From: Caldisericota bacterium
GTDB taxonomy: Bacteria; Caldisericota; Caldisericia; UBA6126; JAGPKI01
DNA length: 64,000 nt
Assembly (NCBI GenBank): GCA_052034135.1
Contig: JBPOJC010000013.1
Location: 62,538 to 126,537 of the forward strand
Reading direction: 5' to 3'
Positions 12,130 through 57,982 of the stretch are shown here, in pieces; the first letter of the stretch is position 1; each line of letters begins with the position of its first letter. The notes under the pieces are model-generated. The model did not search any database. It was not told the DNA's origin and saw nothing but the letters and a program-made list of their open reading frames with translations. Both the position numbers and the translations under genes were made by a program.

Positions 12130-13105
12130 GATTATTTAGATTCGAGTCTAATCCAATAAGGAATTCATCAATACATTTTTTAACTTCATTTGCGTCAAGT
12201 GAACGGTGAAAATTATACAGTTCTTTTCCGGGGCTATCGTTATAATAAGGTCTTGTACAGTTATCACAACCACTTGTAAGGAATGGTTTACCACTCTTTA
12301 TTAATTTTTTAACCTTTTCCATATCTTCAATTTTAACATTAAGTTTTATAAGATCTCCAGAACTATTAAATTCTGGTTCAAATGAAATATCTTCGTATAT
12401 TAGAGCTCTTAATACCTGTACTTTCCTATACGAACTTAAATCTGGCTTGGGAAGATTTTCAAGTTCAGTTCCTATTATGGGAGTAAATGAAAAAAGCCCA
12501 GTATTAATCAAATTTGATTTTAAGAAACTCATCATTTTAAAAAAGTCTTCGATAGTATCAGATAAACCATATATCAAATGCGTTCCAATGTGGCCCTTGT
12601 AAATTTGTGATAAGCCAACCAGTGTTTCAACCTTTTCTTTAAAATCATTACCCTTAATTTTCTCATATGAATCTAATTTTGCGCAATCAAGAGGTATTGT
12701 TATGGTATCCGCTCCAATTTCGAATAAACTTTTCAAAAATTCAATATTTGTTGAAGCAATAGAAATTGATATTTTGAAATTATTTCTGCTTGCCAAGATT
12801 AGGCTTTCAACCAAAGATTTGAGCATATTTAAAAAATATTCATCTGAAACAATCTGAAGACAAATTCTCTTTATACTATTTGCTTTATCTATAGCATTTA
12901 AAAGCTCTCCATCACTAACATTTTGCCATGTAATACGTGATAAATAATTAGAACAGGTTGAAGAGGTAATAGATTGTGAGCAGAATTTACAGGAATTCCT
13001 ACATTTCTCCCCGACCATTACATAAATTGTCTCAAGTGGAAAATCTATTACACTTTTTCTTAAACCGAGCTTAATAGCAGATGCATACGAAAGCTTTAAA
13101 TTCAT
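12122..13105 (-). CDS. Radical SAM protein (BioB/ThiH/lipoyl-synthase-like small rSAM).
   Basis: A CX3CX2C motif (CRNSCKFC) lies near the N-terminus, and extra Cys residues (CDNC) near the C-terminus suggest an auxiliary cluster. It is 327 aa. Its end overlaps mutS2 convergently by 8 nt. Confidence 0.6.
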   Translation of the reverse strand: MNLKLSYASAIKLGLRKSVIDFPLETIYVMVGEKCRNSCKFCSQSITSSTCSNYLSRITWQNVSDGELLNAIDKANSIKRICLQIVSDEYFLNMLKSLVESLILASRNNFKISISIASTNIEFLKSLFEIGADTITIPLDCAKLDSYEKIKGNDFKEKVETLVGLSQIYKGHIGTHLIYGLSDTIEDFFKMMSFLKSNLINTGLFSFTPIIGTELENLPKPDLSSYRKVQVLRALIYEDISFEPEFNSSGDLIKLNVKIEDMEKVKKLIKSGKPFLTSGCDNCTRPYYNDSPGKELYNFHRSLDANEVKKCIDEFLIGLDSNLNNLI

Positions 13106-42629: not shown

Positions 42630-43049
42630 TTAAAAAGCTAATAAGTTTAAACCTATATCTTCATTTCTTTCGCGATAGATTTCTCCATCAAAAATATCTA
42701 TTACTGCTTCCAATGTACCACTAATGATAGCGCTATTTAAGTGTCCTCCGATTACTTTGAATTCGTCATTTGCAAGGTTTACATGAAGGTGCAAGTAAAT
42801 TTCTCCATTCATTACAGACACATTCCCAAGTAAACTAGTAATTTCATGGTTACCCACTATTTTCTCAGTTTTGTAAACCTTATTTGATACATCGTAAACA
42901 CCAATTTCAGCATTATCTGTTGCACCAATACCCGAGATTATTCCTGCTTTAATATTATTGTCATTACAAATTTGTTTTATAGAGCTTACTATTTCTTCTC
43001 CACGATCAACTCTAAATATAATTTTGTTTGCTATTCTTTTATAAATCAT
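42630..43049 (-). CDS. DUF296 (PPC) domain protein. It is the last gene of the Hdr/Frd operon.
   Basis: It is ~139 aa with a beta-rich pattern and GG.H residues typical of the PPC domain. It lies 4 nt downstream of the malic enzyme gene on the same strand. Confidence 0.5.
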   Translation of the reverse strand: MIYKRIANKIIFRVDRGEEIVSSIKQICNDNNIKAGIISGIGATDNAEIGVYDVSNKVYKTEKIVGNHEITSLLGNVSVMNGEIYLHLHVNLANDEFKVIGGHLNSAIISGTLEAVIDIFDGEIYRERNEDIGLNLLAF

Positions 43050-43052: not shown

Positions 43053-44507
43053 TTAAGAAACCTCTTTGATTGCGTACTCAAGAGCTTCATCAATTAAACT
43101 TTGTGGTGGTTTCTTTATAAAACCACTTTCCATAAGAAAGTTTGTTAAATTTCTTGAATAATCTATATCTTCTTTTGCCCTATTATATGCTTCATCCCAA
43201 CTCATATTAACCCTTGCAACTCCATCAGCTATAGCCTGAGTTGCTACATCTGCTGCTTCATTTGGAAATACTCCTGCTTCTTCCATTGTTGGAAGAATAT
43301 TATCTAGATTAATTCCACGTTTCTCTGCAAAATTAGCAAGTGATTTTGCAGCAGCTATTGCCATATTATCAGTTATTTTGCTTGCTCTAACAAGAAGAGC
43401 TCCCTTTAAAATTCCTGGGAAACCTAAAGAATTATTAACTTGATTAGGGAAATCGCCTCTTCCTGTACCAATTATATATGCTCCGGCTTTCTTTGCTTCA
43501 TATGGGTATATTTCTGGTACAGGGTTTGCACAGGCAAATATTATAGGTTTATCATTCATTGCTTTAATCCATTCTGGTTTAACAACTCCCGGTCCGGGCT
43601 TTGAAAGAGAAATCAAAACGTCAGCACCTTTAATTGCTTCTTCAATCGTTTCAATTTTATTAGGATTTGTATTTTTGCAAATATCCCATTTTCTATAAAA
43701 TCTTTTGTCTTCTTCTATGTCTCTCCTCCCGCTATGAAGAGCACCCTTTGAGTCAAACATAATAGCTTTTTTAGGATCAGCGCCAGCAGCCAGATTCAAT
43801 CTTAAGCATGTTGTGTTAGATGATCCTGCACCAAAATATACAATTCTTACATCTTCTAATTTTTTATTAGCGAGCTTTAAAGAATTAAGTAGTCCAGCTA
43901 AAGTGACACAAGCAGTACCCTGCTGATCGTCATGCCAAACTGGTATTTCGCATTCTTCTCTTAATACATCAAGCACTTTATAGCAGTTAGGTTGAGATAT
44001 ATCTTCAAGATTTACTGCTCCAAAACTATATTGAACTCTTTTAACAAATTCAATTATTTTGTCAGGATCATTCTCACCCTTTTCATTTTTACTATCAATA
44101 CATAAAGCAACTGCATCCACTCCACCAAGGTATTTCATAAGAAGTGCTTTACCTTCCATAACTCCAAGCCCACCAGGAGGAGTAACATCTCCATCTCCAA
44201 GCACTCGAGTTGAGTCACTCACTACAGCAACAAGATTTCCTCTGTTTGATAAAGTAAATGATTCAAGATTATTATCTCTTATTGTTGTAGAGACTATAGA
44301 TACTCCAGGGGTATACCAGACATTAAACCAGTTAAACCCATAAAGTGATACTTTTGGAATAGTTTGAACTTTACCACCATAAAATCGGTGGGTGCTATCC
44401 GCCAACTTCTTATAAAAAATAGTTTGAGCTTTTGCGATCTGTTCATCTGTAAAGTTATCAGGAAAACATTTGCTAAGATTGCTTAAATCCGGATTAATTT
44501 TTTCCAT
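43053..44507 (-). CDS. maeB: NAD(P)-dependent malic enzyme (oxaloacetate-decarboxylating malate dehydrogenase).
   Basis: There is a strong colinear match to bacterial malic enzymes: YTPGV, VVSDGT.VLGLG-like VVSDSTRVLGDGDV, VMEGKA, NLEDI..PNC, HDDQQGTA, and the C-terminal GTGRGDFPNQVNN. Confidence 0.85.
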   Translation of the reverse strand: MEKINPDLSNLSKCFPDNFTDEQIAKAQTIFYKKLADSTHRFYGGKVQTIPKVSLYGFNWFNVWYTPGVSIVSTTIRDNNLESFTLSNRGNLVAVVSDSTRVLGDGDVTPPGGLGVMEGKALLMKYLGGVDAVALCIDSKNEKGENDPDKIIEFVKRVQYSFGAVNLEDISQPNCYKVLDVLREECEIPVWHDDQQGTACVTLAGLLNSLKLANKKLEDVRIVYFGAGSSNTTCLRLNLAAGADPKKAIMFDSKGALHSGRRDIEEDKRFYRKWDICKNTNPNKIETIEEAIKGADVLISLSKPGPGVVKPEWIKAMNDKPIIFACANPVPEIYPYEAKKAGAYIIGTGRGDFPNQVNNSLGFPGILKGALLVRASKITDNMAIAAAKSLANFAEKRGINLDNILPTMEEAGVFPNEAADVATQAIADGVARVNMSWDEAYNRAKEDIDYSRNLTNFLMESGFIKKPPQSLIDEALEYAIKEVS

Positions 44508-44536: not shown

Positions 44537-46225
44537 TTATAACCCTGCTGGCATAAATGGATCAAAATCTTTATTATGCTCTTTAAGCAGGTCGATATTT
44601 CTATATTCAGGTAATAAGATTGGAGAGATTTTTTTTGAATCTATGCTTTCTTTTTTAAGCTCCTCTTCATAAGCCCAAACGTGATCAATGTTCAGTTTGC
44701 CTTTTAAATCTGTCTCCTTCGCTAATCTTGCTGCTTCAATTCCTGCTCTTCTTCCAAAAACATTATAATCAAGAACAGAATTACCCATTAACCTATTTCT
44801 ACCATGAACTCCTCCAGAACATTCTCCAGCTGTTAAAAGATTAGGAAGATTAGTTCTTGTCCATTCATCAATTTCTATTCCGCCATTTTGATAATGAAGT
44901 GTAGGATAGACAAGCATAGGCTCTTTTCTAATATCTATACCAAACCTCTGATATTGCCTTACCATAGCAGGGAAAGCCTTTTCAAGCGTTCCAGGACCCC
45001 TCAAGATTTCAATTATAGGCGAATCAAGCCATATTCCAACATAGCCATCAGGTGTAACTATACCCTTTCCGTCACTACACTCTTTAATAAATGCCGAGGA
45101 TTCAACATCTCTTGGCTCTAAAGGAAATACAAACAATTCTCCATCCTTATTAAGTGGTTGGCCACCAAAACTACGTATTTTTTCCGTTACCAAAAAGCCT
45201 AAAATTTGCTTAGGGTAAATTGAACCTGTCGGATGATACTGAACTGAATCCATATAAATTATTTTGGCTCCTGCTCTATAAGCCATTACCACACCATCCA
45301 TTGTAGCTCCGTAATGATTTGTAGTTTGATATCCTTTAATGTGCAATCTCCCAAAGCCACCCGTTGTCATAATGGTAACTTTTGCTTTTACCACTGTATA
45401 TTCACCAGTTTCCATATTAAACAATATTGCACCAGCTATTTTACCTTCATCATCTTTTATTAGTTCCACGGCAGGTGAATATTCCAAAATTTCTATTCCT
45501 TCAGGATGATTTCTCACTTCATCTCTAAGAACTCGCATTATTTCTGCGCCAGTATAATCTTTACAACAGAGCATTCTCCTCCTTGAAGCACCACCACCTG
45601 AATCTGTTTGGGGATTTCCATCAGGCAATTTATCCCACATAACCCCAAGGTCCTCGAGAAACTTTACAATAAATGGGGCTTCTTTTGTTAATGCTTTTAC
45701 AAGTTCTGGCTTATTGTCAAAGTGACCGCCTCCAATGGCATCAAGATAATGTATTAACGGAGAATCAGAAGGATTAATAGCTGCCTGCATTCCTCCTTGA
45801 GACATCATGGAGTTAGAATCTCCTATACGTAATTTATTAGAAATAATAACCTTAGCACCATTTTTATAAGCCCACAAGGCTGCCTGACAACCTGCGCCAC
45901 CACCACCTATTACTAAAACATCTGTTTCATAATCTACTGGATCAATAGAAAAATTGCGCGGCAATCTCGTATGACTTTCAAGGATATCCACCACTTCCGA
46001 AGTTAAATTTTCCCCCTTATTAGGACCAATTCTTATTATTTTTCTTGCATCTGGACTATAATCTGGGTGATAAGTTGAAAGAACCTTTTCCCTCTCCTCA
46101 GCACTCATAGGTTTTAAAAAGTTTTGTAAGCCCTTTTTAGCATATTCTACCCTCTTGGGGCGAGTTTCTTCAACTTTTTTTAATGATTCAAGCATATAAT
46201 CCGGGTATCCCACTTTTTCCTCCAT
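44537..46225 (-). CDS. Soluble fumarate reductase/succinate dehydrogenase flavoprotein-like subunit (TfrA/FrdA-like) with a ~95-aa N-terminal extension.
   Basis: It has the FAD motif DVLVIGGGGAGCQAA and the SdhA-like core GGG.SRRRMLCCKDYTG.EIM. The covalent-FAD His is replaced by Asn (DSNSMMSQGG), so FAD is predicted to be non-covalent, as in soluble Frd and TfrA. Confidence 0.75.
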   Translation of the reverse strand: MEEKVGYPDYMLESLKKVEETRPKRVEYAKKGLQNFLKPMSAEEREKVLSTYHPDYSPDARKIIRIGPNKGENLTSEVVDILESHTRLPRNFSIDPVDYETDVLVIGGGGAGCQAALWAYKNGAKVIISNKLRIGDSNSMMSQGGMQAAINPSDSPLIHYLDAIGGGHFDNKPELVKALTKEAPFIVKFLEDLGVMWDKLPDGNPQTDSGGGASRRRMLCCKDYTGAEIMRVLRDEVRNHPEGIEILEYSPAVELIKDDEGKIAGAILFNMETGEYTVVKAKVTIMTTGGFGRLHIKGYQTTNHYGATMDGVVMAYRAGAKIIYMDSVQYHPTGSIYPKQILGFLVTEKIRSFGGQPLNKDGELFVFPLEPRDVESSAFIKECSDGKGIVTPDGYVGIWLDSPIIEILRGPGTLEKAFPAMVRQYQRFGIDIRKEPMLVYPTLHYQNGGIEIDEWTRTNLPNLLTAGECSGGVHGRNRLMGNSVLDYNVFGRRAGIEAARLAKETDLKGKLNIDHVWAYEEELKKESIDSKKISPILLPEYRNIDLLKEHNKDFDPFMPAGL

Positions 46226-46921
46226 TTATGTTATATCAAAATTGAGATCTCTCTCAAAATATTTCTTCTTTAAATCCTCTTTGGGCATATTTGCTAATTC
46301 CTTATATCCCTCTTCGAATTTACCATCTTCTATCTCTTTAAGCCTTGTCTCAACAAATTTACCTTTTTTAGACAAATATTTCCCATAAATTCTTCTTGCA
46401 AGAAGTGCAACATTAAACTGTGTTATTTCTGCTGGACATCTTGCAGCACAAAGCCCACAAGCAAGGCAATCAAACGATAATTCAGAAACTTTTTCTATAT
46501 CTCCCTTTATTACTGCTTGAACATAATCCATTACTTGAATATCCTGCGGACAAATCTTTGTGCATGTATTACAAGAAAGACATTTAAAAGTTTCAGGATA
46601 ATATTCTAAAAAAACCTGAGGATCAGGCTCTAATTGGTCTAAGTTGTATATTGCTTTTGGATTTGGTACATAAGGTATCTGAACAATCTGCATATTTTCC
46701 TGCACTACTGTTTGGCATCCAAGTCCACCATGAAGTTTATAATCTTCAGGGAGCCTGTATATTGTAGCACATGCACCACAAAAACCTTCTCTGCATCCAA
46801 CTCCTTTCTTAAGTTTAAATCCTGCATATTCCATTGCCGTAATGATTGTTGAGCTTTCAGGAACATAATACTTTTTACTTAGAATGTAAATTGGTATTTT
46901 TTTTAAATTTATCTGTTCCAT
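46226..46921 (-). CDS. SdhB/FrdB-like iron-sulfur subunit (2Fe-2S plus 4Fe-4S/3Fe-4S).
   Basis: The N-terminal plant-type 2Fe-2S motif is CREGFCGAC...C. Two downstream cluster motifs are CLSCNTCTKICP and CLACGLCAARCP. Confidence 0.75.
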   Translation of the reverse strand: MEQINLKKIPIYILSKKYYVPESSTIITAMEYAGFKLKKGVGCREGFCGACATIYRLPEDYKLHGGLGCQTVVQENMQIVQIPYVPNPKAIYNLDQLEPDPQVFLEYYPETFKCLSCNTCTKICPQDIQVMDYVQAVIKGDIEKVSELSFDCLACGLCAARCPAEITQFNVALLARRIYGKYLSKKGKFVETRLKEIEDGKFEEGYKELANMPKEDLKKKYFERDLNFDIT

Positions 46922-47824
46922 TTAATTTGAAACTAACTCCTTTCTGTTTAATACTTTTTTGGGGTCGATATAATTTTGGTCAAATCCATATATCTCTTCG
47001 CCGAGATCAAATAAAAATGCCATTAATTGTGTAAAATAAAGAACTGGAATCGGTTCAAAGCCATGATGTAATTCAATAATATCTTTTTGCCTTCTATCAA
47101 GGTTAAACTGACAAAGCGGACAACTTGTAACAATGAGTTCAGCTCCACTTTTCTTTGCATTGTTTAAAATGTCATAGCTAAGTGAAGTTACAATCTCTTT
47201 ATCAGAAACAACCTGATAACTACCACAACATCTTGTCCTTAATGGATTATTAACGACAGTTACGGAAAGATTTGTTAATAAATTCTCCATAATCTTAGGA
47301 TCTTCTGGATCATCTATTCCAATCTCTTTTGGCCTTAAGAGAGTACAACCATAATAAGGAGAAACCTTTAGGTCTGGTAGAGGGTTTTTAATATTTTGCT
47401 GCAATTTTTCGGCTTCAATCTCTTTAAGCATTTCTAAAAAATGGACTACTTCCACATCCTGATAGTAATGCTCGATCTCTAAGTACATCACATCGTTAAT
47501 CTTTTCAAGGTCTTCTTTGTTCTTCCTCATTCTTAGATTTGACATCTTTAATGTATTAAAGCACATAGCACATAATGTAACCATTCTATATTCATTATCA
47601 ACGATTCCAGCCTTGTTCATTTCTTCTACCCGAATGAAATTTCTAATCGGTGCAAAATGCCTGATTAAATCATCCGAAGAAAGAGAAGGCACCGCTCCAC
47701 AGCAATTCCATCTTGGAATCTCTACAAATTCAATACCTAATATTTTAGCTACAGCGATAGAAGAAGTTTCAAAACTTTTTGCTTTTGTTTTTAAAGTACA
47801 CCCTGGATAATATGGTATTTTCAT
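46922..47824 (-). CDS. hdrB: HdrB-like / SdhE-like protein with two CCG domains.
   Basis: It has two Cys-rich CCG motifs (YYPGCTL...NCCGAVPS and YYGCTL...RCCGSYQ) plus CPLC. Its start and stop abut the neighbouring genes. Confidence 0.8.
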   Translation of the reverse strand: MKIPYYPGCTLKTKAKSFETSSIAVAKILGIEFVEIPRWNCCGAVPSLSSDDLIRHFAPIRNFIRVEEMNKAGIVDNEYRMVTLCAMCFNTLKMSNLRMRKNKEDLEKINDVMYLEIEHYYQDVEVVHFLEMLKEIEAEKLQQNIKNPLPDLKVSPYYGCTLLRPKEIGIDDPEDPKIMENLLTNLSVTVVNNPLRTRCCGSYQVVSDKEIVTSLSYDILNNAKKSGAELIVTSCPLCQFNLDRRQKDIIELHHGFEPIPVLYFTQLMAFLFDLGEEIYGFDQNYIDPKKVLNRKELVSN

Positions 47825-47839: not shown

Positions 47840-48244
47840 TTAACTTGTAAACTTTCTAAAAGCTGCAACTACAGCAACTTGAGGTAAGATTTTCCTGTCT
47901 TTTTCATCAATGTTTTTGATATCTATTCTATCAATTGCCTTCCTTAACTTTATTTGCCTTAAAGCCTCTCCCACTTTTGCAACATCTATTCCTCTAGGAC
48001 ACCTTGTCGTACAGGTAAAGCAAGAAGCACAAATCCAGAAAGTCTTAGTGTCTAAGACCTCTTCATCTCCAAGCTCAACGAGTCTCATCATATTTGATGG
48101 TGTAATGTCCATTTCAGCCACGAGCGGACAACTGCCTGAGCAGGTTCCGCATTGCTCACATAGTGTTACAACTTCACCGCTTATTTCGTTAACCTTTTCT
48201 ATAAATTCTACGTTTTTGTCAGATAATATGAGTTTATTGGACAT
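47840..48244 (-). CDS. hdrC: HdrC-like 2x[4Fe-4S] ferredoxin subunit.
   Basis: There are two CxxCxxCxxxCP motifs (CEQCGTCSGSCP and CASCFTCTTRCP) in a 134-aa protein. Confidence 0.8.
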   Translation of the reverse strand: MSNKLILSDKNVEFIEKVNEISGEVVTLCEQCGTCSGSCPLVAEMDITPSNMMRLVELGDEEVLDTKTFWICASCFTCTTRCPRGIDVAKVGEALRQIKLRKAIDRIDIKNIDEKDRKILPQVAVVAAFRKFTS

Positions 48245-48245: not shown

Positions 48246-50645
48246 TTAAGCTCCTATTCTCTCTGTAAATAATTCTTTTTCTGCAATCTCCCAGAGTCTC
48301 TCTCTTTTCTCTGTTGAAATGGGTTCTTCCTTTTTTAAAAACTTTGTAAGCTCAGTAATGTGTTTATAAAAGTCAGTTAATAGTGAAGCAAGTAATTCAG
48401 CAAATTTTAATCTTTCTGGAGATATACCTTCTTTATTAAGAATTTCTTTTACGAGAGAAACATTTGTTTTAATTTTATCAACAGATCCAGTATAAGGAGA
48501 CGCACGATCATCGCATTCACCTATAAAAATACCATCAGCACCAGACTTAAAAGCATATAAAATTAGCTTCGGCGTTATTCTACTTCCGCTTGGAACTCGT
48601 ATAATTCTTGTTTCAGCTGGATAAGAGAGTCTCGCAGTCCCTATGTTATCAGCAAGTCTATAGGTGCAGGTATTATCTGCAAAAACAAGGATTCTTATTT
48701 CACCTTCTTTTTTTGTTCTTAAAGCTTCATCTATTTGTTCCATTAATTGTTTATTAGTGTAGTATCGAAGGTCTAAAGCATCTTTTGGGCAATCCGCTAT
48801 ACACATACCGCAGCCCTTACATATAACTTCATTAATTTTAGCTTTTCCATTTTCAATCGAAATAGCTTTAAGTGGACAGCTATTTATGCATAACCCGCAT
48901 CCATCGCAAATATCATCATAAACAAAAGCGATAATTGGTTCTATTTCAAATACACTTTTATTCATAAGCCTCATTGCTCTTGAAGCAGAAGCACTCCCCT
49001 GAGCAACTGAATCAGGGATATCTTTAGGACCTTGAGCGCATCCTGCGATAAAAACACCATCGATAAGAGTGTCAACTGGTCTGAATTTAGGGTGAGCCTC
49101 TTGTAAGAAACCATCTGCACTTCTTGCAAGTTTAAGAATATCTGCAATTTTTTCACTTCCACTTGATGGAACAATGCCGGTTGACAAAACTACAAGGTCA
49201 AATTCTCCCTCTATCATCTTTCTACTTAAAGTATCTTCTGAAAGCAGATAAAGCTTTTTGGTTAAAGGGTCTTCTCGAATTTCTGCAACTCTACCACGAA
49301 TAAACTTTATTCCTTCGTTCTGAGCTCTCTTATAATACTCCTCAAAGCCTTTTCCATATGCACGTAAGTCTGTATAGAAAATATAAATGTCTCTTGATGG
49401 ATCAAGCCTTTTAAGTAATTGAGCAAGCTTTGTTGCATACATACAGCAAATTCTTGAGCAATTTTCTCTATCTATCTGCTCATCTCTTGAACCAACACAT
49501 TGTATAAAAGCAATTCTTTTCCCGATTGGCTTAAGTGGAGGACCGGAAGAACCAGTTGCAATAATCCTCTCAAGCTGAAGTGCAGTTAAAACATTGGAAT
49601 ATTTCCCAAAGCCATAAACCGGCTTTTTTTCAGGGTCAAATAATTCATAGCCTGTTGCTGTAATGATTGTATCAACATTAAAACTTATTAGTTCTTCTTT
49701 ATCATCAAAGTTTATTGCTCCCTGCGTACATAACTTTTCACATATACCGCAAATTTTGCCACCCTTGACAAGTCTTTTACAGTTTTTCTCATCAATTAAA
49801 TACTTTCTTGGTACTGCAACAGGATTTTGAACATATACTGCTTTTCTCAAAGATAGCCCTTCATTAAATTCATCTGGCACTTTAACAGGACATTTTTCAG
49901 CGCATATGCCGCAGGCAACACATTTGTCCATATCAATGTATCTTGGTTTCTTTCTGACGGTTACAGTAAAATTACCAAGATAACCTGTAATACTTTCTAT
50001 CTCGGAATAAGTCATGAGCTTTATATTGGGGTGCTCTGCACAATCAGCCAGTTTGGGACCTATGATACATGTAGCACAATCCTCTGTTGGGAATGTTTTT
50101 GATAGCTTTGCCATCTTTCCGCCAATTGCAGGTTCTTTCTCAACAAGGTAAACTTCAAAACCAGAATCACCTAAATCAAGGCTTGCTTGAACTCCAGTAA
50201 TTCCTCCGCCTATAACTAAAACTCGTTTCCCTATTGGTAATTTCTGCCTTTCAAGAGGAATATCCGATCTTACTTTAGCTATTGCCATATTAACAAGGTC
50301 TATTGCTTTGCTTGTAGCTGCGCCTTTACTGAAATGGCACCAGGAACATTGCTCTCTAATATTTGCCATTTCAAAGGTGTATGCATTTAATCCAGCTTTT
50401 TCAACTGTTTTCATAAATGTTTTTTCGTGAAAAAGAGGTGAACATGACGCAACAACTATATGATCAAGATTTTGCTCTTTAATATCATCAATAATGTATT
50501 TTTGACCCTCTTCTGAACACATGTGTTCGTTGTCTCTGACAAACACAACACCTTCTTTATCTTTTACACTTTCTGCAACTTTTTTAACATCAACAATATC
50601 AGAAATATTTCCGCCACAATGGCAGATATAAACGCCAATTCGCAT
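48246..50645 (-). CDS. hdrA: HdrA-like flavoprotein fused to a C-terminal MvhD-like domain (candidate electron-bifurcating subunit).
   Basis: The N-terminal Cys cluster is VYICHCGGNI and the FAD motif is VLVIGGGITGVQASLDLGDSGFEVYLVEKEP. There are several ferredoxin-type CxxCxxCxxxCP motifs. The C-terminal ~140 aa match MvhD (ILVFADNTC...GADGIFIGEC). It is 799 aa. Confidence 0.85.
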   Translation of the reverse strand: MRIGVYICHCGGNISDIVDVKKVAESVKDKEGVVFVRDNEHMCSEEGQKYIIDDIKEQNLDHIVVASCSPLFHEKTFMKTVEKAGLNAYTFEMANIREQCSWCHFSKGAATSKAIDLVNMAIAKVRSDIPLERQKLPIGKRVLVIGGGITGVQASLDLGDSGFEVYLVEKEPAIGGKMAKLSKTFPTEDCATCIIGPKLADCAEHPNIKLMTYSEIESITGYLGNFTVTVRKKPRYIDMDKCVACGICAEKCPVKVPDEFNEGLSLRKAVYVQNPVAVPRKYLIDEKNCKRLVKGGKICGICEKLCTQGAINFDDKEELISFNVDTIITATGYELFDPEKKPVYGFGKYSNVLTALQLERIIATGSSGPPLKPIGKRIAFIQCVGSRDEQIDRENCSRICCMYATKLAQLLKRLDPSRDIYIFYTDLRAYGKGFEEYYKRAQNEGIKFIRGRVAEIREDPLTKKLYLLSEDTLSRKMIEGEFDLVVLSTGIVPSSGSEKIADILKLARSADGFLQEAHPKFRPVDTLIDGVFIAGCAQGPKDIPDSVAQGSASASRAMRLMNKSVFEIEPIIAFVYDDICDGCGLCINSCPLKAISIENGKAKINEVICKGCGMCIADCPKDALDLRYYTNKQLMEQIDEALRTKKEGEIRILVFADNTCTYRLADNIGTARLSYPAETRIIRVPSGSRITPKLILYAFKSGADGIFIGECDDRASPYTGSVDKIKTNVSLVKEILNKEGISPERLKFAELLASLLTDFYKHITELTKFLKKEEPISTEKRERLWEIAEKELFTERIGA

Positions 50646-51211
50646 TAAACTTCCTCCAAAATTTGATACTTTTTTACACCTTCAGCATATAAATCTCTAC
50701 CAGTCGTATCTATGCCAACAATTACAGGAAAATCTTCTACATAAAATTCCATAATTGCTTCGGCTCCAAGATCCTCATAAGCGATAAGTTTGGCACTTTT
50801 AATTGCTTGAGCTAACAGCGCTCCAGCCCCACCTATGGCAATAAAATAAATTGCTTTGTTTTTTATGATAGAATCTATGACTTCTTTTTTTCTCTCACCT
50901 TTTCCAATCATACCTTTTAGCCCATTATCAAGAAGAATTGAAGTATAGGGATCCATACGAGAACTTGTTGTTGGTCCCGCAGAACCAACTGCCATTCCTG
51001 GCTTCGCAGGCGAAGGACCAACATAGTAAATAACTTGATTTTTTATGTCAAATGGAAGAGGTTTGTTAGATTTTACAAGTTCTACAAGTCTTTTGTGGGC
51101 TGCATCTCTTGCTGAATATATTTTTCCACTAAGTAGCACTTTATCGCCAATTTTTAAATTAACGATTTCATCCTCCACTAAGGGAGTATTTAACTTGATT
51201 TCATTTCCCAT
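50645..51211 (-). CDS. fumB: Class I fumarate hydratase (Fe-S hydro-lyase), beta subunit.
   Basis: The fumarase/tartrate-dehydratase beta-type domain is present (GKIYSARDAAHKRL, YYVGPSP, GKGER). Confidence 0.8.
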   Translation of the reverse strand: MGNEIKLNTPLVEDEIVNLKIGDKVLLSGKIYSARDAAHKRLVELVKSNKPLPFDIKNQVIYYVGPSPAKPGMAVGSAGPTTSSRMDPYTSILLDNGLKGMIGKGERKKEVIDSIIKNKAIYFIAIGGAGALLAQAIKSAKLIAYEDLGAEAIMEFYVEDFPVIVGIDTTGRDLYAEGVKKYQILEEV

Positions 51212-51230
51212 CTTTATTTAACTTCCCTTC

Positions 51231-52076
51231 TTATATAATTGCACTTTTATGTCTTGCAGCATGACATTGAATATTTACAGCAACTGGCATGCTTGCTATA
51301 TGACAGGGAAAAGTTAATATATTCACTGCTAAAGCAGTTGTCCTACCGCCAAGGCCCATTGGACCAATACCTAAATTGTTTATTTTATTAAGTAGTTCTT
51401 CCTCTACTGCTTTCCATATAGGATCAGGATTATCTTCATCCAAAGGTCTTAAAAGAGCTTTTTTCGAAAGTATTGCACATTGTTCGAAGTCTCCACCAAT
51501 GCCTACTCCAACAATTATCGGTGGACATGGATTACCTCCGGCTCTTTTCACTCTATCAACAACAAATTTCTTGATACCTTCAATACCATCTGCTGCTGTC
51601 ATCATTTTTACTTCACTCATATTTTCTGAGCCGCCACCCTTAGGGGCAAAATCTATTTTTATTTTTTCACCTGGAACAATTGTGGTATGTATTATAGCAG
51701 GAGTATTGTCCTTTGTATTTTTACGCTCAATCACTGGATCATCAACTAATGATTTCCTTAAATATCCCTCAGTGTAACCGAGCCTAACTCCTTCATTTAT
51801 CGCACTATAAAAATCTCCACCAACAATGTGAACATCTTGTCCAAGTTCAATAAAAAATAGAGCTACTCCAGTATCCTGACACATAGGTATTTGTAATTCG
51901 CTAGCAAGTTCATCATTTTTAATAATTTGAGAAAGTATTTCTTTGCCAACAGGAGACTCTTCTTTTTCCATAAATTCTCTAAGTTTTTTCATTAGATCAT
52001 CGTTTACATAGTAATTTGCATCAATGCAAAGCTTTTTTATAACAGGAATAATTTGAGAAACATCTATCTCTCTCAA
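51231..52076 (-). CDS. fumA: Class I fumarate hydratase (Fe-S hydro-lyase), alpha subunit.
   Basis: It has MCQDTG near the N-terminus and the catalytic Cys ligands. It pairs with the beta subunit immediately downstream. Confidence 0.8.
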   Translation of the reverse strand: MREIDVSQIIPVIKKLCIDANYYVNDDLMKKLREFMEKEESPVGKEILSQIIKNDELASELQIPMCQDTGVALFFIELGQDVHIVGGDFYSAINEGVRLGYTEGYLRKSLVDDPVIERKNTKDNTPAIIHTTIVPGEKIKIDFAPKGGGSENMSEVKMMTAADGIEGIKKFVVDRVKRAGGNPCPPIIVGVGIGGDFEQCAILSKKALLRPLDEDNPDPIWKAVEEELLNKINNLGIGPMGLGGRTTALAVNILTFPCHIASMPVAVNIQCHAARHKSAII

Positions 52077-52088
52077 TTTAGCACCCCT

Positions 52089-52511
52089 TTATTGCTTATG
52101 TTTTTCAATTTCTTCTTTTTGCCACTCTATTGCAGCTTCACCTTTATAAAGATTACCAATTTCTTCTTCTAAATTTGAAACTTCAATTTTAAAAAGCCAC
52201 CCTTTTCCGTATGGATCTTGATTTGGAAAAGTCGGATCATCACTAATGTCTGGATTTACTTCTTTTATAGTTCCAGATAGAGGTGCGTAAATTTTACCGA
52301 CCCATTTACCGGTTTCGACTGTTCCAACAACATCGTCTGCACCTACTTCATCGCCTTCTACGGGCAATTCGATATATGAAATTTCACCTGCAAGTTTTTG
52401 ATAGAAATCTGTAACTCCTACTGTAGCAATGTTACCTTCAAGCTTTACCCACATATGCTCTTTATGATAATAAAGATCATCTGGTAGAAGATACCCTAAA
52501 ACATCACTCAT
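52089..52511 (-). CDS. gcvH: Glycine-cleavage-H-like lipoyl-carrier protein. It is the first gene of the Hdr/Frd operon.
   Basis: The GcvH fold motifs are H.W.K.EG, VG.TDFAQ-like GVTDFYQ, and the lipoyl-Lys box VETGK...IYAPLSGTI, which aligns to VESVKAASDLYAPVSG. Confidence 0.8.
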   Translation of the reverse strand: MSDVLGYLLPDDLYYHKEHMWVKLEGNIATVGVTDFYQKLAGEISYIELPVEGDEVGADDVVGTVETGKWVGKIYAPLSGTIKEVNPDISDDPTFPNQDPYGKGWLFKIEVSNLEEEIGNLYKGEAAIEWQKEEIEKHKQ

Positions 52512-52823
52512 TATTTACCCCCTATTTAAAACAAAATTCCTAAATATTATAAATAGCAAATTTTATCAAATGTTCAATAAAGCAATTCAAACAAAGTATA
52601 GAAATTCAGTATATAAATAGTTTTTGATCTACATTTTGATTATTAATTGTTTATTGATTTATTTATATTTTCAACTTTAGAAGAAAGGTAAAGTATTTTT
52701 TTAACTAATTTTTAATAATAATTTATCTTTTTCCCCAATTAGAATTTGTACTTTGAAATTTTTGATTAGAGAAAGGAAAATTTTTCTTTAAAAAATCTTT
52801 TAAAATTTTTCATTTTTTACTTG

Positions 52824-52837
52824 TTTTTTTTTTTTTT
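52824..52837. repeat. T14 homopolymer tract in the divergent intergenic region between gcvH (-) and the modification cluster (+).
   Basis: This is a direct reading of 14 consecutive T residues. Confidence 0.9.
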
Positions 52838-53018
52838 GATTTACACTACTTCTCGGTAGCTTTTCTTAAATTAGGGATGGAGACTCCGATGAGGAGATTA
52901 AATTATATTACAATCAATAATGAAAACAAAGGAGATGGTGATTCCTATGGGCTAATTTTCTTTTAAAAATTTCATATAAAGCTTGTTTAAAGGTACTCAA
53001 AGAAAGGAGGAGATAAAA

Positions 53019-53789
53019 GTGAGCAATTTTTTCAAATTTAAGATGCCGAAAAGAAAAAGAAGTAATTTAATAATATTAAGTGGTAGAAAAAGTTTAGAGG
53101 CAGTTTGTTGTGGTAAATTCTGCAATCCTGTTGTTTCTATTTTATCATTGCCTGAAGAACATCCAGAAAAATGGGTTGTCATTGATATTGCTAATAAGTT
53201 AAATGATGCAAGAGTAGAATTATGTGAAACTGCAAAAAATGGAAATAGTGTTTGGAAGGCAACAACTGAAGCAGAAGTAAATCAAGCTGCAGCTCAAGTC
53301 AACAGTCATCTAACTAATTTTATTAACAATTTAAATGATGCAAATTCACTTATTAATAATTGGCATCAAGTTGCAGAAGCTAATAATTTGTTCAACACAA
53401 ATGATACAAATTTAAATGCTGCTGATTTAAATGAAGTAAAACAAAGTATGATAGATAATAATTTACCTATGGATCTTTTAAGTGGTTGCTGGGACAAAAC
53501 TGTTCAAATCTTAAATGAAGGAAATGGTACAGAAGTATTTCTTAACTTAGAACAAAATCTAATAAGTACCATTCACACACTTGCAAGTAATTTACAACAG
53601 CAATTTAATATTTTGATTGAGACTGAAATAAAATTTAGGCGTGATCAAATTACTCTCACAGATGTATGGAATACAAGATTTGGTATTATGAAAAGTTTTG
53701 ATTCCATATGGGCAAATCTTTCAGCATTTGATGGCTTTATGAAAGTTACTGAAGAGATGCAACGTATAGCAGCAGGATATGGAGGATGA
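53019..53789 (+). CDS. Hypothetical Asn/Gln-rich protein with an N-terminal CCGKFCNP Cys motif, ending in ...AAGYGG. It is a possible substrate/precursor of the downstream enzymes.
   Basis: The RBS AAAGGAGG is at 53004..53010 with an in-frame GTG at 53019. Alternative in-frame starts are ATG 52983 or ATG 53043. No family is recognised. Confidence 0.5.
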   Translation: MSNFFKFKMPKRKRSNLIILSGRKSLEAVCCGKFCNPVVSILSLPEEHPEKWVVIDIANKLNDARVELCETAKNGNSVWKATTEAEVNQAAAQVNSHLTNFINNLNDANSLINNWHQVAEANNLFNTNDTNLNAADLNEVKQSMIDNNLPMDLLSGCWDKTVQILNEGNGTEVFLNLEQNLISTIHTLASNLQQQFNILIETEIKFRRDQITLTDVWNTRFGIMKSFDSIWANLSAFDGFMKVTEEMQRIAAGYGG

Positions 53790-53855
53790 TAGCTAAATAT
53801 ATGAAAGGGAGGGTTTCTTATTATTTCTGTTTATAAGAATAGAAAGAAACTTTAA

Positions 53856-55844: not shown

Positions 55845-55853
55845 AGAAAAAAT

Positions 55854-56654
55854 ATGAAAGTAGGAATAATCCAAGGACCTTTTAAGCTTTCTTCAGCAAG
55901 AGAAAATTGGTGTACATTTGAAAATAATGTAGATTCTTTAGTACAACAAAAAGTCAATATGATTTGTATATGTGAAGAATTTTTGGGTAAACTCTCTTTT
56001 GTTATGGAGAAATGCTTAAAATTAGCGAAAACTTATAACATCTTTATAACTCCAGGCGTTTTAATTGAAAATTCTAAAGATTCGCTAAAGCCATATATCA
56101 TTTCAATTGTTATTGATCCAGAAGGCAGAATTTTAGTTAAACATAGAAAAGTATTTATGCCTCCACAAGATTCAGAATATTTCAATGCTGGGAATAGTTT
56201 TGATGACTGTATATTTGATTTTTTAGGAATAAGAAGTGCGATCTTAATTTGCGGAGACATAATTTCACCAATAGCACTTAGATATTTAAAGCAGAGATAC
56301 AACATTGAATTAGTAATACTTCTATTACGATTACCAGAAGATGAAAATTTTTTCATTCCACTCGTTAAAATACGTGCTGCTGAAAACAATGTGGCTATTC
56401 TTATAGTGAATGTATATGAAAAGAGTTTTCATGTCAAAATTGCTAGCCGATTGATCCTTCCAATAGAAAATGATATAGAAATATGTGAAAAAGATGGAAT
56501 AGGAACAATTTCAATTGATGTTGTTTCATTATCAGAAAGTTTACAATTAACTAAAGAAAATTTTCTTAGAAGTAAACAAAATTCTATAATAAAAGATATG
56601 ATATATAATGCTTTTGAGAATGAAAAACGTCTATTTAGCATTGTAAAAAAATGA
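55854..56654 (+). CDS. Nitrilase-superfamily carbon-nitrogen hydrolase.
   Basis: It has the C-N hydrolase E-K-C architecture. A Glu is near the N-terminus (CEEF), the RK..L box is KHRKVFMP, and the catalytic Cys context is AILICGD. Confidence 0.65.
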   Translation: MKVGIIQGPFKLSSARENWCTFENNVDSLVQQKVNMICICEEFLGKLSFVMEKCLKLAKTYNIFITPGVLIENSKDSLKPYIISIVIDPEGRILVKHRKVFMPPQDSEYFNAGNSFDDCIFDFLGIRSAILICGDIISPIALRYLKQRYNIELVILLLRLPEDENFFIPLVKIRAAENNVAILIVNVYEKSFHVKIASRLILPIENDIEICEKDGIGTISIDVVSLSESLQLTKENFLRSKQNSIIKDMIYNAFENEKRLFSIVKK

Positions 56655-57982
56655 ATTACGTTCTTTCTATGTATTCAATAATCAGCAAATTAGGTCTCAA
56701 AGACTCAATTGCAGTTTATAATGTATTTACTAAAGCACTTATCTTAGGGGGTAACATTTATAAAAGGGTTTTAAAACAGAATAACTTCATAAATACCCTG
56801 AAATACCCATTTTTAAAAGTAGAAGAAATAAAAAAATTGAATAATTTGGGAGTTATAGTTGACTCAAGTTTAGATGAAAAAAAGGTTACAAAAGAAAAAA
56901 TTCTAGAAGTCATTAAAGATTCAAGTAAGATTAACCTAACTTTGCTTTTAACACTTGACTGTAATATGGATTGTTCATATTGTTATGAAAAAGAAAATCG
57001 TAACAAAGCTTATATGGACTTATCAACTTGTAATAAAATTTTACAATACTTTGTTTATTTGCTTGATTACTCATCGTCTAAGAAAATATCAGTTACAATT
57101 TACGGAGGAGAGCCTCTGTTAAACATAGATGCAATAAAATATTTATTACCAAGAATAAAGCAATCTGCTATAAAGAAAAAAATAATTCTCAATGTAGATC
57201 TTATAACTAATGGAATCTTATTATCTTTAAATCTTCTTAATCAACTTAAACAATATGGATTGAATAGTGTGCAAATTACTTTAGATGGATGCGAAGAAGT
57301 CAACGACTCACGACGATATTTTAAGAACGGTAAAGGAACATTTAATAAAATATTTTCGAATCTTATAGAAACTGCAGACTGTTTACCTACAACACTTAGA
57401 ATTAATCTTGACAGTAATAATGTTGATAAGATTACGCGATTTTTAGACATTTTAAGGAAATTTGAACTTCACAGAAAAATAATTCTTCGTCCTGCATTTG
57501 TTTTTTCGCCCAAATATTCATGTAATAATCTTATAGAAAATACAAATAACTTGCTATTCTTTTGGAAGAAAGCATCAGAAAGAAATTTTATCATTCCTTT
57601 TGATCTATTTTCCCTACTTCCTGTTTGCTCAATCTACAAAAATTATGACTTAGTAATAGGACCCTTAGGAGAGATTTACAAATGTATTGGGTTTGCTGGT
57701 AATAAGAAGTTTATTATTGGTCATATAGATGAATTTAAACATCAAGTAGAAAATTATCCATTTAAACCTCAAAGTTTGATAATAAGAGATAAGTGTGTAA
57801 GCTGTAAGTATTGGCCATTGTGTCTGTCAGGATGTAGAATGTTAGCTTACATAAAATTTGGTTCTTTAGAATCTATCTATTGTCAAAAGGAATTTTTTGA
57901 TGCAATTTTTGAACATCTATTACCACTTTATATCTCTCAAAATTATGATGTAAATTTACAGAATTTTGCTTCTTCGAGCTAA
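56651..57982 (+). CDS. Radical SAM maturase with a C-terminal SPASM domain and a ~100-aa N-terminal extension that may be an RRE-like substrate-binding domain.
   Basis: A CX3CX2C motif (CNMDCSYC) follows a ~100-aa leader. GGEPLL is present, and the C-terminal SPASM motif is CVSCKYWPLCLSGC. It overlaps the hydrolase stop (ATGA). Confidence 0.8.
   Translation: MNYVLSMYSIISKLGLKDSIAVYNVFTKALILGGNIYKRVLKQNNFINTLKYPFLKVEEIKKLNNLGVIVDSSLDEKKVTKEKILEVIKDSSKINLTLLLTLDCNMDCSYCYEKENRNKAYMDLSTCNKILQYFVYLLDYSSSKKISVTIYGGEPLLNIDAIKYLLPRIKQSAIKKKIILNVDLITNGILLSLNLLNQLKQYGLNSVQITLDGCEEVNDSRRYFKNGKGTFNKIFSNLIETADCLPTTLRINLDSNNVDKITRFLDILRKFELHRKIILRPAFVFSPKYSCNNLIENTNNLLFFWKKASERNFIIPFDLFSLLPVCSIYKNYDLVIGPLGEIYKCIGFAGNKKFIIGHIDEFKHQVENYPFKPQSLIIRDKCVSCKYWPLCLSGCRMLAYIKFGSLESIYCQKEFFDAIFEHLLPLYISQNYDVNLQNFASSS

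Follow-up and report, generated by a model that had tools for sequence, protein, structure and literature searches.

A cysteine-free GcvH-like lipoyl protein as a candidate HdrB substrate in a fumarase–Hdr–fumarate reductase operon of a Caldisericota bacterium

HdrABC-type complexes are widespread in bacteria and non-methanogenic archaea. To our knowledge, the only thiol/disulfide substrates recognized for them there are DsrC, in sulfate reducers, and LbpA, in sulfur oxidizers of the sHdr type. The locus described here, part of a 64-kb stretch of Caldisericota DNA (hereafter, the window), places a gene for a GcvH-like lipoyl-carrier protein at the head of an operon that encodes Hdr-type and fumarate reductase (Frd) subunits, and raises the question of what a protein of this family does in such company. 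Two elements of a possible answer have already been proposed separately: operons in which fumarate reductase is linked to Hdr, and a GcvH that serves Hdr as its disulfide.

The lipoyl carrier and its operon

The operon consists of ten same-strand genes in the order gcvH-like, fumAB, hdrA(MvhD-like)-hdrC-hdrB, frdB-frdA, malic enzyme and PCC, with intergenic gaps of 0–29 bp, the gcvH-like gene lying 12 bp from fumA (Table 1). By direct reading of the sequence, an AGGGGG ribosome-binding site is found 8 nt 5′ of the gcvH-like ATG. A consensus promoter/terminator scan of positions 42300–53100 returned 42 promoter-like sites against 40.5 expected, which is not above chance.

Table 1. Features of the window discussed in the text, in order of position.
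Feature	Coordinates	Strand	Basis or remark
LipS2-family lipoyl synthase, outside the operon	12122..13105	-	NCBIfam NF053743, 288.5 (cutoff 270)
PCC-domain protein, final gene of the operon	42630..43049	-	Kept in closest relatives only
Malic enzyme	43053..44507	-	Pfam malic, Malic_M
FrdA/TfrA-like fumarate reductase flavoprotein	44537..46225	-	Best NCBIfam match TfrA; PDB alignment
FrdB-like iron-sulfur subunit, 12 Cys	46226..46921	-	2Fe-2S-type group of 4 and two 4Fe-4S groups
HdrB-like protein, two complete CCG motifs	46922..47824	-	Pfam CCG x2; match to solved HdrB
HdrC-like protein, two [4Fe-4S] clusters, 8 Cys	47840..48244	-	Pfam/NCBIfam; cysteine list
HdrA-type flavoprotein, 799 aa, fused C-terminal MvhD-like domain	48246..50645	-	NF040770; Pfam FlpD
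Class I fumarate hydratase, beta subunit	50645..51211	-	Pfam Fumerase_C; NF005310, 279 (cutoff 238)
Class I Fe-S fumarate hydratase, alpha subunit	51231..52076	-	Pfam Fumerase, E 6e-120; NF004885, 427.9 (cutoff 276)
GcvH-like lipoyl-carrier protein, 140 aa, ATG start	52089..52511	-	Pfam, NCBIfam, PDB alignment, AF2/Foldseek, tree
AT-rich intergenic region, 470-bp, presumed promoter region	52512..52982	.	Lies between gcvH and a divergent gene

The first gene encodes a protein with the H-protein fold and its lipoyl-lysine. Pfam GCV_H matches the open reading frame with an E value of 3e-38 over profile positions 1–121 of 122, and phmmer finds solved GcvH structures (E 3e-26), aligning the VETGK of the window protein to their ESVK lipoyl-lysine motif. 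The AF2 model (pLDDT 93.8) superposes on GcvH structures in Foldseek with TM scores of 0.83–0.88 and an rmsd of 1.0–1.9 Å, and presents the lysine, K69, in a β-hairpin turn flanked by strands 61–67 and 71–75. K69 is invariant in the clade alignment (A1), as is the motif ETGKW-GK. The protein has no cysteines and carries an additional C-terminal helix (residues 125–139). The NCBIfam models for GcvH score it at 121.6 (TIGR00527, cutoff 115.85) and 129.8 (NF002270, cutoff 117). The margins over these cutoffs are small, and Hdr-linked relatives likewise carry a GcvH label in their sources.

In the 64-kb window, Pfam searches of nearly all open reading frames 110 aa or longer found no gcvP, gcvT, lpd or lplA, and GcvPA/PB and LplA used as tblastn queries gave no hit over the same 64 kb. 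A preliminary description of the locus had assigned the GcvH fold and an aligned lipoyl-lysine, had remarked on the lack of glycine-cleavage P/T/L genes nearby and had called the gene promoter-proximal; the first two statements are borne out by these searches and by the agreement of Pfam, NCBIfam, PDB and AF2, and the third holds for the leading position but not for the promoter itself, so that 'promoter-proximal' denotes gene order alone.

K69 is probably lipoylated, by an LplA-type ligase and a LipS1/S2 system. In sister operons a two-domain lipoate-protein ligase gene (lplA) directly follows gcvH; the window operon is without one. As far as family assignment goes, the LipS2 gene, 39 kb from the gcvH-like gene, shows that lipoyl-proteins are formed in this organism through LipS1/S2; no LipS1 was seen in the window. 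A radical SAM gene at 56651..57982 was considered as a lipoyl synthase and rejected, as it encodes a SPASM peptide maturase rather than a LipS.

The HdrB-like protein has the two CCG motifs by which HdrB is recognized (five cysteines each, for a non-cubane [4Fe-4S] cluster): its cysteines number exactly ten (9, 41, 42, 85, 88, 160, 199, 200, 235 and 238), all at CCG positions, and it matches the solved chains 9sfi_C, 8rvu_b and 5odc_B end to end, with E values down to 8e-32. HdrA matches the HdrA2 model NF040770 end to end at 947 bits, under the cutoff of 1100. Its MvhD-like domain (Pfam FlpD, residues 652–771) keeps two of the five conserved MvhD cysteines in a cysteine census of the alignment to MvhD (5odc_D), from which we judge that it has probably lost the [2Fe-2S] cluster through which MvhD takes in electrons. 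The operon encodes no electron-input (donor) module.

FrdB belongs to a family for which we collected 4897 homologues. FrdA carries a 98-aa N-terminal extension ahead of its FAD domain and, in the PDB alignment, has Asn138 where other enzymes have a histidine covalently attached to FAD; the same asparagine occupies this position in all 69 of 69 FrdA homologues. Because the FAD would therefore be bound non-covalently, the reductase direction is favoured, and syntrophic succinate oxidation by confurcation, considered earlier, is now disfavoured, with asparagine replacing the histidine family-wide. Our literature search on propionate syntrophy, Caldisericota and Cloacimonadota found nothing specific.

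The GKW proteins and their gene neighbourhoods

The preliminary description had likened the protein to LbpA and had proposed placing it in a phylogeny with GcvH and LbpA. In a bootstrapped neighbour-joining tree (computed in numpy), 36 proteins with the motif GKW, comprising the window protein, its Hdr/CCG-linked relatives and two-Cys LbpA-type proteins, split from 65 other GcvH with a bootstrap of 0.96. All 16 gcvP-linked GcvH fall among the 65, apart from the window protein, and none of the 36 is gcvP-linked. Within the GKW superclade, bootstrap values are just 0.64–0.78. The LbpA-type references are two-Cys proteins from a Sulfolobales-type-seeded search, which fit the published two-cysteine hallmark and include no experimentally validated proteobacterial LbpA; they carry NC(E/N)IPE toward the N-terminal end and (S/H)C toward the C-terminal end. 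The tree supports the view that, by sequence, the window protein is not a housekeeping-type GcvH and groups with LbpA-type proteins.

A single MAG encodes both kinds, a GKW protein beside a CCG-fusion dehydrogenase (locus L016) and a separate gcvH-gcvPA-gcvPB (L090), and the gcvP-linked GcvH of Caldisericota MAGs are only 40–48% identical. References for GcvPA/PB were taken from L083 and L090. L040, labelled Citrobacter, was dropped as a source of gcvT/gcvP references, its gene content not being enterobacterial, and the open reading frame upstream of the L083 gcvH was rejected as GcvT because it is YuiC-like; GcvT linkage was hence left unscored.

The neighbours of the close relatives are distinctive. 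Of the 8 species-representative loci with a GcvH of 54% identity or more, 6 have a CCG gene within 8 kb, compared with 1 of the 72 others (p = 6e-7). Close relatives adjoin CCG/HdrB genes in no fewer than five architectures that are unrelated to one another: the Fum-Hdr-Frd operon; Flx-like-HdrACB-CMD-TusA-DsrE..H-GcvH; an sHdr-type cluster in Altiarchaeales; gcvH-larA-[FAD-oxidase+CCG fusion]; and gcvH-lplA-CCG-LutB-like-Ldh_2. WOR-3/Stahlbacteria-type clusters have a CMD (AhpD-like) gene between hdrB and gcvH, with a nitroreductase gene next after gcvH. Near two clade members (L013 and L169) no Hdr was found.

Seen from the reductase, the association is narrower. Across 74 metagenome loci FrdB-FrdA nearly always adjoins HdrC-HdrB(-HdrA), the arrangement found in the window, yet in the wider Hdr-Frd family (about 60 loci) gcvH is mostly absent in cis and a Mvh hydrogenase is often present instead. 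A cis gcvH is limited to the closest lineage (FrdB at least 63% identical); none lies within 10 kb in some 20 operons that are more distant and have sufficient flanking sequence. Many distant operons encode MvhA/MvhG/canonical MvhD, SucCD and Kor, and four loci (L113, L116, L118 and L162) keep the degenerate MvhD-like domain yet have no gcvH in cis. WOR-3 appears to combine an Hdr-Frd operon of the kind without cis gcvH and a GKW protein encoded at another locus. As most such operons have no cis gcvH, the Hdr-Frd core does not need the gene in its operon. Immediately behind the malic enzyme gene, sister clusters contain a second Hdr module, with HdrC-HdrB, a GltD/HdrA-like protein of 1466 aa and a canonical MvhD. 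Two CCG modules with one lipoyl protein is the layout to be expected were they linked by a common dithiol carrier. In some gcvH-bearing sister operons HdrA is fused to a GltD-like NAD(P)H module, and because GcvH and this module occur there together, GcvH is not simply a replacement for a missing donor.

Related systems

LbpA is the lipoate-binding protein of sHdr sulfur oxidation (Cao et al. 2018, PMC6067878; Tanabe et al. 2023, PMC10332631). It has a strictly conserved lipoyl-lysine and two cysteines, one near each terminus, that are absent from GcvH, some archaeal LbpAs being exceptions to the two-cysteine rule (PMC6067878). Its further marks are dedicated lipoylation genes (sLpl(AB), LipS1/S2) and a requirement in sulfur oxidation through Hdr. 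The window protein resembles it in being a single GcvH-like lipoyl domain encoded with Hdr-type genes and in the tryptophan directly after the lipoyl-lysine that marks their common superclade. As to lipoylation genes, lplA adjoins gcvH in the sister operons, and the window has LipS2, 39 kb away. The window protein differs in having neither of the two conserved cysteines and in its partner, which for LbpA is sHdr (hdrC1B1A-hyp-hdrC2B2) in a sulfur oxidizer, whereas here it is a bifurcating-type HdrA(MvhD)BC with fumarate reductase in a strict anaerobe; sulfur-transfer genes are absent from the window. The LbpA-like carrier of the preliminary description thus survives as to superclade and CCG/HdrB neighbours, although the protein, for want of the cysteines, cannot strictly be called an LbpA.

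The thiol:fumarate reductase TfrAB of Methanothermobacter, which we take to be represented by NCBIfam NF004900 and NF004898, oxidizes a dithiol at its CCG modules and reduces fumarate. The window shares with it a TfrA-like flavoprotein and the combination of FrdB-type clusters with HdrC/HdrB-type CCG modules. The best NCBIfam match of the window FrdA, to the TfrA model, is 338 bits, however, far under the family cutoff of 718. TfrB is a single fusion protein; the window encodes FrdB, HdrC and HdrB separately and has an HdrA besides (TfrB-model matches in the window reach only 26–48 bits). CoM-SH and CoB-SH are unlikely substrates in a bacterium, here one of the Caldisericia. With the MvhADG-HdrABC complex of methanogens (PDB 5odc among others), the homology of HdrA, HdrC and HdrB extends end to end with CCG cysteines intact, but the window encodes no hydrogenase, its MvhD-like domain is fused and probably clusterless, and Frd subunits are added.

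Closer in gene content is the 'succinate operon' of Pseudoclostridium thermosuccinogenes, with fumarate hydratase, Flx-Hdr and fumarate reductase, for which bifurcation is proposed (PMC7282089, citing preprint 10.20944/preprints201912.0288.v1) and thiols are invoked as possible intermediates between Flx-Hdr and Frd (PMC7282089). Compared by description, both loci combine fumarase, Hdr and Frd in one operon with a proposed fumarate/ferredoxin coupling. There, FlxABCD provides NADH input and no GcvH is reported, whereas the window is without Flx, has a degenerate MvhD-like domain and encodes a lipoyl protein. The window also fits the Hdr-linked 'novel fumarate reductase' operon of Koendjbiharie and van Kranenburg, in which FrdA/FrdB stand beside hdrBC(A), often with fumarase. 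In the Ehe cluster of Culexarchaeia, the available part of the source describes GcvH with an SdhA/FrdA-type flavoprotein and HdrA2B2C2, suggests GcvH as the carrier of the HdrB disulfide and contains no GcvH clade analysis (Kohtz et al. 2022, PMC9723716). That cluster differs, as described there, in being archaeal and membrane-hydrogenase-linked, with CdhA and without fumarase or malic enzyme. It is the only suggestion that our literature search on GcvH with Hdr and fumarate reductase found.

Electron flow, competing readings and implications

We regard the chances as evenly balanced that the window protein is a cysteine-free LbpA-like lipoyl carrier that acts as HdrB substrate and feeds fumarate reduction. 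In a soluble HdrA-HdrC-HdrB-FrdB-FrdA complex, the lipoyl dithiol/disulfide would react as substrate at both non-cubane Fe-S sites of HdrB, taking the place that belongs to CoM-S-S-CoB in methanogens, to DsrC in sulfate reducers and to LbpA in sulfur oxidizers with sHdr. The operon would carry pyruvate/malate to fumarate (malic enzyme and fumarase) and on to succinate. Because, in this lineage, neither NAD(P)H nor a hydrogenase feeds HdrA and the MvhD-like cluster is probably lost, three redox ports would remain, for fumarate at FrdA, ferredoxin at HdrA and a dithiol at HdrB; with only these left, the most likely reaction would be the oxidation of dihydrolipoyl-GcvH by HdrB with transfer of the electrons to fumarate, resembling that of thiol:fumarate reductase, and ferredoxin reduction may be coupled to it through the HdrA flavin.

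Lipoylation, docking to HdrB, the direction of electron flow and bifurcation are the parts of this proposal that we infer, and the 'lipoyl-protein:fumarate oxidoreductase' of the preliminary description is, unproven, one among several compatible electron-flow schemes. The window gives no source of dihydrolipoyl-GcvH, since with a single HdrB the reduction and re-oxidation of the same carrier would bring no net gain, and we also count against the proposal that the protein scores above the GcvH equivalog cutoffs of NCBIfam. Only tentatively, and with more doubt than belief, would we extend it to the general statement that, in anaerobes other than methanogens, cysteine-free GKW-type GcvH-like proteins serve HdrB/CCG enzymes as their physiological 'heterodisulfide' and that the operon encodes a lipoyl-protein-dependent, ferredoxin-coupled (bifurcating) fumarate reductase. 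The systems covered by that general reading are fumarate reductase, lactate-type dehydrogenase, Flx-Hdr and LutAB-like.

Rather unlikely in our estimate, though the strongest of the competitors, is a directly wired HdrA-HdrC-HdrB-FrdB-FrdA complex whose Fe-S chain leads to fumarate and bifurcates to ferredoxin with no thiol carrier. GcvH (and LplA in relatives) would then merely be co-transcribed, serving another lipoyl enzyme or a general lipoylation relay of the kind in which Bacillus subtilis GcvH acts. The equivalog scores agree with such a housekeeping role, as does the absence of a cis gcvH from most Hdr-Frd operons, which carry a Mvh hydrogenase or other input; the Mvh-bearing ones fit H2:fumarate/ferredoxin bifurcation. 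FrdB-type and CCG modules are, besides, physically joined in type E Sdh, as they are in the Tfr of M. thermautotrophicus, and the window has NCBIfam TfrB and SdhE matches. Direct wiring leaves unexplained, however, why it is the GKW clade and not the housekeeping one that recurs by CCG genes in five architectures, and why a gcvH-lplA pair stands at the operon head; it would also leave ferredoxin as the sole evident electron donor for the window complex. Housekeeping scores, the lack of lpd in the window and the presence of gcvPA/PB in some Caldisericota would equally suit an entry from glycine, in which P and T proteins encoded elsewhere load the H protein and Hdr-Frd replaces L, coupling glycine oxidation to fumarate. 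We consider this improbable: in the Caldisericota/Desulfarculaceae loci examined (L071, L083 and L090) gcvP has its own, different GcvH, none of the 36 GKW proteins is gcvP-linked, and elsewhere the clade occurs in contexts (Dsr/TusA, LarA and LutB) unrelated to glycine.

Those other contexts lend something to two readings that we rate lower still. Mycobacterium tuberculosis has an AhpD-lipoamide system, and the CMD and nitroreductase genes flanking gcvH in WOR-3/Stahlbacteria-type clusters would be in keeping with a carrier for thiol repair or antioxidant defence, reduced by Hdr and passing electrons to AhpD-like (CMD) proteins or peroxiredoxins, the fumarate operon sharing no more than regulation; neither the window operon nor its sister operons contain CMD or peroxiredoxin genes, however, and we think this reading quite improbable. 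Least probable of all, and by our estimate very much so, is a sulfur carrier of LbpA type, its lipoyl arm holding sulfane sulfur for an sHdr-like reaction. The superclade shared with the two-Cys proteins and the TusA/DsrE genes adjoining relatives speak for it, but both hallmark cysteines and any sulfur-transfer genes are missing here, and fumarate metabolism is the core of the operon.

The reading of the window protein as a lipoyl carrier for HdrB draws attention to an easily recognized clade of lipoyl-proteins, marked by the ETGKW motif and the lack of cysteine, that is found with CCG/HdrB modules in five or more types of gene cluster for carbon and sulfur metabolism and is a concrete candidate partner for bacterial Hdr enzymes, amenable to expression, lipoylation and assay. 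In its general form it would, if true, give bacterial HdrABC its long-missing substrate. For this operon it would define how fumarate reduction, there a route toward succinate or propionate, is coupled to ferredoxin in fermenting Caldisericia of anaerobic digesters, a coupling that bears on the energy yield and hydrogen balance of the digester.

The lipoyl-carrier protein and its operon

The protein encoded at 52511..52089 had been described from the sequence as being of the GcvH type with an aligned lipoyl-lysine, a description with which Pfam, NCBIfam, structure alignment and structure prediction all agree. It narrowly passes the NCBIfam GcvH models (TIGR00527, 121.6 against 115.85; NF002270, 129.8 against 117) and scores far below the cutoffs of the 'GcvH-related' and 'not_gcvH' models. 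In alignment with solved GcvH structures (E = 3e-26), VETGK lies opposite the ESVK lipoyl-lysine motif. An AlphaFold2 model, for which an alignment of 32 relatives served as input (pLDDT 93.8), superimposes on GcvH structures with TM scores of 0.83-0.88 and an r.m.s.d. of 1.0-1.9 Å, with Lys69 predicted in the turn joining strands 61-67 and 71-75 and an additional C-terminal helix at residues 125-139.

Gene order bears out the proposed first position in an Hdr-Frd operon, as the gcvH-like gene heads ten co-directional genes with gaps of 0-29 bp. Upstream lies a 470-bp intergenic region followed by a divergent gene; a promoter scan of the operon gave no signal over chance. The operon was found to lack hydrogenase, Flx and NAD(P)H modules, and no second HdrB was found in the window.

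Features of the operon and of other genes in the window
Feature	Position	Strand	Remarks
Operon gene 1, gcvH-like	52511..52089	-	140 aa; Pfam GCV_H over the whole profile, E 3e-38
Operon genes 2-3, class I fumarase			alpha, then beta
Operon gene 4, HdrA			799 aa, with an MvhD-like domain as a fusion; HdrA2 model score 947 bits, under the cutoff of 1100
Degenerate MvhD-like domain	48246-48690		C-terminal part of HdrA, residues about 652-799
Operon gene 5, HdrC			8 Cys
Operon gene 6, HdrB			10 Cys
Operon gene 7, FrdB-like Fe-S protein			12 Cys
Operon gene 8, FrdA/TfrA-like flavoprotein	44537-46225	-	
Operon gene 9, malic enzyme			
Operon gene 10, PCC-domain protein			
PduL phosphate propanoyltransferase	6468-9068	-	with a 495-aa protein (no family match) and a hexapeptide transferase
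LipS2-family lipoyl synthase	12122-13105	-	NCBIfam NF053743, 288.5 bits (cutoff 270)
Family III CoA-transferase	20986-22170	+	nearest succinate-glutarate CoA-transferase, under that cutoff
Divergent cluster, probably RiPP	52983-58764	+	two no-family proteins, peptidase-MA-like, CN-hydrolase, radical SAM/SPASM peptide maturase (CefB- or geopeptide-like, under cutoffs), CAAX protease
Integrase-core (rve) transposase	61360-62079	-	probably a piece of an insertion sequence

The host is a Caldisericia bacterium of anaerobic digesters. Judging from the LipS2-family gene, it would assemble lipoate by the LipS1/LipS2 route, which was first discovered beside sHdr-LbpA clusters; no LipS1 was seen in the window. 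The PduL and CoA-transferase genes fit a succinate/propionate metabolism.

A clade beside LbpA

Scanning species-representative genomes with the window protein yielded 80 GcvH loci, the neighbours of which were scored by tblastn with the operon proteins. A CCG gene lies nearby in six of the eight loci whose GcvH shares 54% or more identity with the window protein, compared with 1 of the 72 more distant ones (p = 6e-7). Hdr/CCG genes stand no more than a few kilobases away in all of the close loci except L013 and L011, the contig of which breaks off after fumB. In a neighbour-joining tree of 101 sequences, which provides the phylogeny that had been called for, all 36 proteins with a tryptophan directly after the lipoyl-lysine ('GKW'), a feature common to the window clade and to LbpA-type proteins, split from the other 65 with a bootstrap of 0.96; support within this superclade is lower (0.64-0.78). 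The LbpA hallmark is one cysteine near each terminus (PMC6067878), and retrieved proteins with this pattern served as LbpA-type references. The window clade contains no cysteine. The LbpA analogy drawn in the preliminary description thus holds for the GKW grouping and the CCG context and fails for both hallmark cysteines, so that the window protein is LbpA-like by descent and context, yet not by the defining cysteine test. In an earlier neighbour-joining tree, the GcvH of L040 (CAYMZZ010000009.1, labelled uncultured Citrobacter sp.) groups among Chitinophagaceae/Chitinophaga-labelled GcvH (L032, L051), and its surroundings are not an enterobacterial gcvTHP operon; the label of this MAG may be wrong.

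Members of the clade occur in five independent architectures. These are (i) gcvH-(lplA)-fumAB-hdrA-hdrC-hdrB-frdB-frdA-malic enzyme, in MAGs labelled Caldisericia, Coprothermobacterota and Thermodesulfobiota, often with methylmalonyl-CoA pathway genes immediately upstream; (ii) Flx-like genes-hdrA-hdrC-hdrB-CMD(AhpD-like)-TusA-DsrE2/E/F/H-gcvH, in WOR-3, Stahlbacteria and others; (iii) an sHdr-type cluster with gcvH at its end, in Altiarchaeales; (iv) gcvH-larA-[FAD-oxidase + Fer4 + 2xCCG fusion] (L016:9980-14347); and (v) gcvH-lplA-CCG protein-LutB-like-Ldh_2 (L165:8001-12507). L013 and L169 are clade members standing alone. The lplA genes of (i) and (v) encode lipoate-protein ligases of two domains, and lactate-type enzymes form the core of (iv) and (v). 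Architecture (ii), present in L014, L015, L017, L019, L167, L168 and L170 with the order DsrE2-DsrE-DsrF-DsrH-gcvH(-nitroreductase), is an Hdr/sulfur-relay/lipoyl-protein system distinct from the sHdr type. What the architectures have in common is a CCG/HdrB-type module, the sole known protein site designed for both forming and cleaving a disulfide by means of non-cubane clusters.

The Hdr and Frd subunits and their relatives

Window HdrB can be aligned over its full length with HdrB chains of solved structure, and its cysteines, exactly ten, all lie inside the two CCG motifs. The MvhD-like domain of HdrA keeps two of the five cysteines conserved in solved MvhD (5odc_D), reading A-D-C-S-C-S at six positions where 22 canonical MvhD read x-C-C-C-C-C, and has probably lost its [2Fe-2S] cluster. 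This degenerate domain is common to the fumAB-hdrA-type subfamily and extends to a few operons that have no gcvH in cis (L113, L116, L118 and L162). FrdA retains the fumarate-site motifs and carries Asn138 in place of the covalent-FAD histidine of E. coli FrdA and SdhA, as do all 69 Hdr-linked FrdA homologues collected; by analogy with variants of E. coli Frd in which the covalent FAD bond is missing, this asparagine suggests fumarate reduction as the working direction, in preference to succinate oxidation. Residues 1-98 form an N-terminal extension ahead of the FAD domain with no Pfam match.

Homologues of the FrdB-like subunit number about 4900 and come from Caldisericia, Coprothermobacterota, WOR-3, Hydrothermae and Atribacteria. 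The five-subunit Hdr-Frd unit is general, because HdrC-HdrB(-HdrA) adjoins FrdB-FrdA in nearly all of 74 metagenome loci. Presence of gcvH in cis is limited to the nearest lineage (FrdB identity of 63% or more). Some sister operons have a GltD-like NAD(P)H module fused to HdrA. In several (L096-L101, L104, L105; for example L099:13847-20669), a second Hdr module follows directly behind the malic enzyme gene, comprising HdrC, HdrB, a 1466-aa fusion of GltD-like and HdrA-like parts, and canonical MvhD; the window contains no module of this kind.

A lipoyl protein as proposed substrate of HdrB

We propose that HdrB of the Hdr-Frd complex uses lipoyl-GcvH as its dithiol/disulfide substrate, the most likely of the readings considered, whose chances we put at about even. 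In the window organism, dihydrolipoyl-GcvH would serve as electron donor for fumarate reduction in the manner of Tfr, and reduction of ferredoxin may be coupled to this via the HdrA flavin. Such bifurcation is thermodynamically allowed by the textbook potentials of lipoyl (about -290 mV), fumarate (+33 mV) and ferredoxin (about -450 to -500 mV). In the sister clusters, the protein would be a dithiol carrier linking a reducing Hdr with a fumarate reductase of the Tfr type; two CCG modules, a lipoyl protein and a lipoate ligase per cluster are the layout expected if a dithiol carrier shuttles, as CoM-S-S-CoB does between Mvh-Hdr and Tfr in methanogens.

The main rival, which we consider rather improbable, holds that the complex is wired directly and that GcvH shares its transcript for some other reason. 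It draws on the more distant Hdr-Frd operons, about 20 of which have enough flank and contain no gcvH. By neighbour-ORF clustering, distant operons (L108-L164) often bear MvhA, MvhG, canonical MvhD, HycI, succinyl-CoA synthetase and 2-oxoacid:ferredoxin oxidoreductase (for example, L132:6611-8068, L157:10155-13135 and L142:1412-4112). Such operons are most naturally read as encoding a bifurcating fumarate reductase that is wired directly and driven by H2, and their neighbours suggest that it operates inside a reductive TCA branch. They are the chief argument against an obligatory role of GcvH. Smaller rivals are an AhpD-type thiol-repair role, a sulfur-carrier role and coupling to glycine cleavage. 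As to the last, gcvP adjoins 16 of the distant GcvH genes and none of the close ones, and no gcvP, gcvT, lpd or lplA was found within the 64-kb window, consistent with the reported absence of P, T and L genes nearby. In two Caldisericota MAGs the gcvP-linked GcvH is just 40-48% identical to the window protein, and one Desulfarculaceae MAG encodes a window-type paralogue (L016) in addition to a gcvH-gcvPA-gcvPB cluster (L090).

In sister genomes (L005-L008 and L166, about 1800-9800), a block encoding biotin ligase, transcarboxylase 12S/1.3S/5S, methylmalonyl-CoA mutase, MeaB and epimerase lies directly upstream and links the operon to propionate formation; no such block adjoins the operon in the window. 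The association of LbpA with sHdr, Tfr itself and Hdr-linked fumarate reductase operons are already in the literature, and GcvH has been suggested, for Culexarchaeia, as a possible Hdr disulfide. Relative to the literature searched, what appears new is a bacterial Hdr-fumarate reductase operon without an evident electron-input module that is headed by a clade protein and lipoate ligase, the distinct cysteine-free GKW clade sister to LbpA, and the repeated linkage of this clade to CCG proteins in carbon-metabolic clusters of anaerobes.
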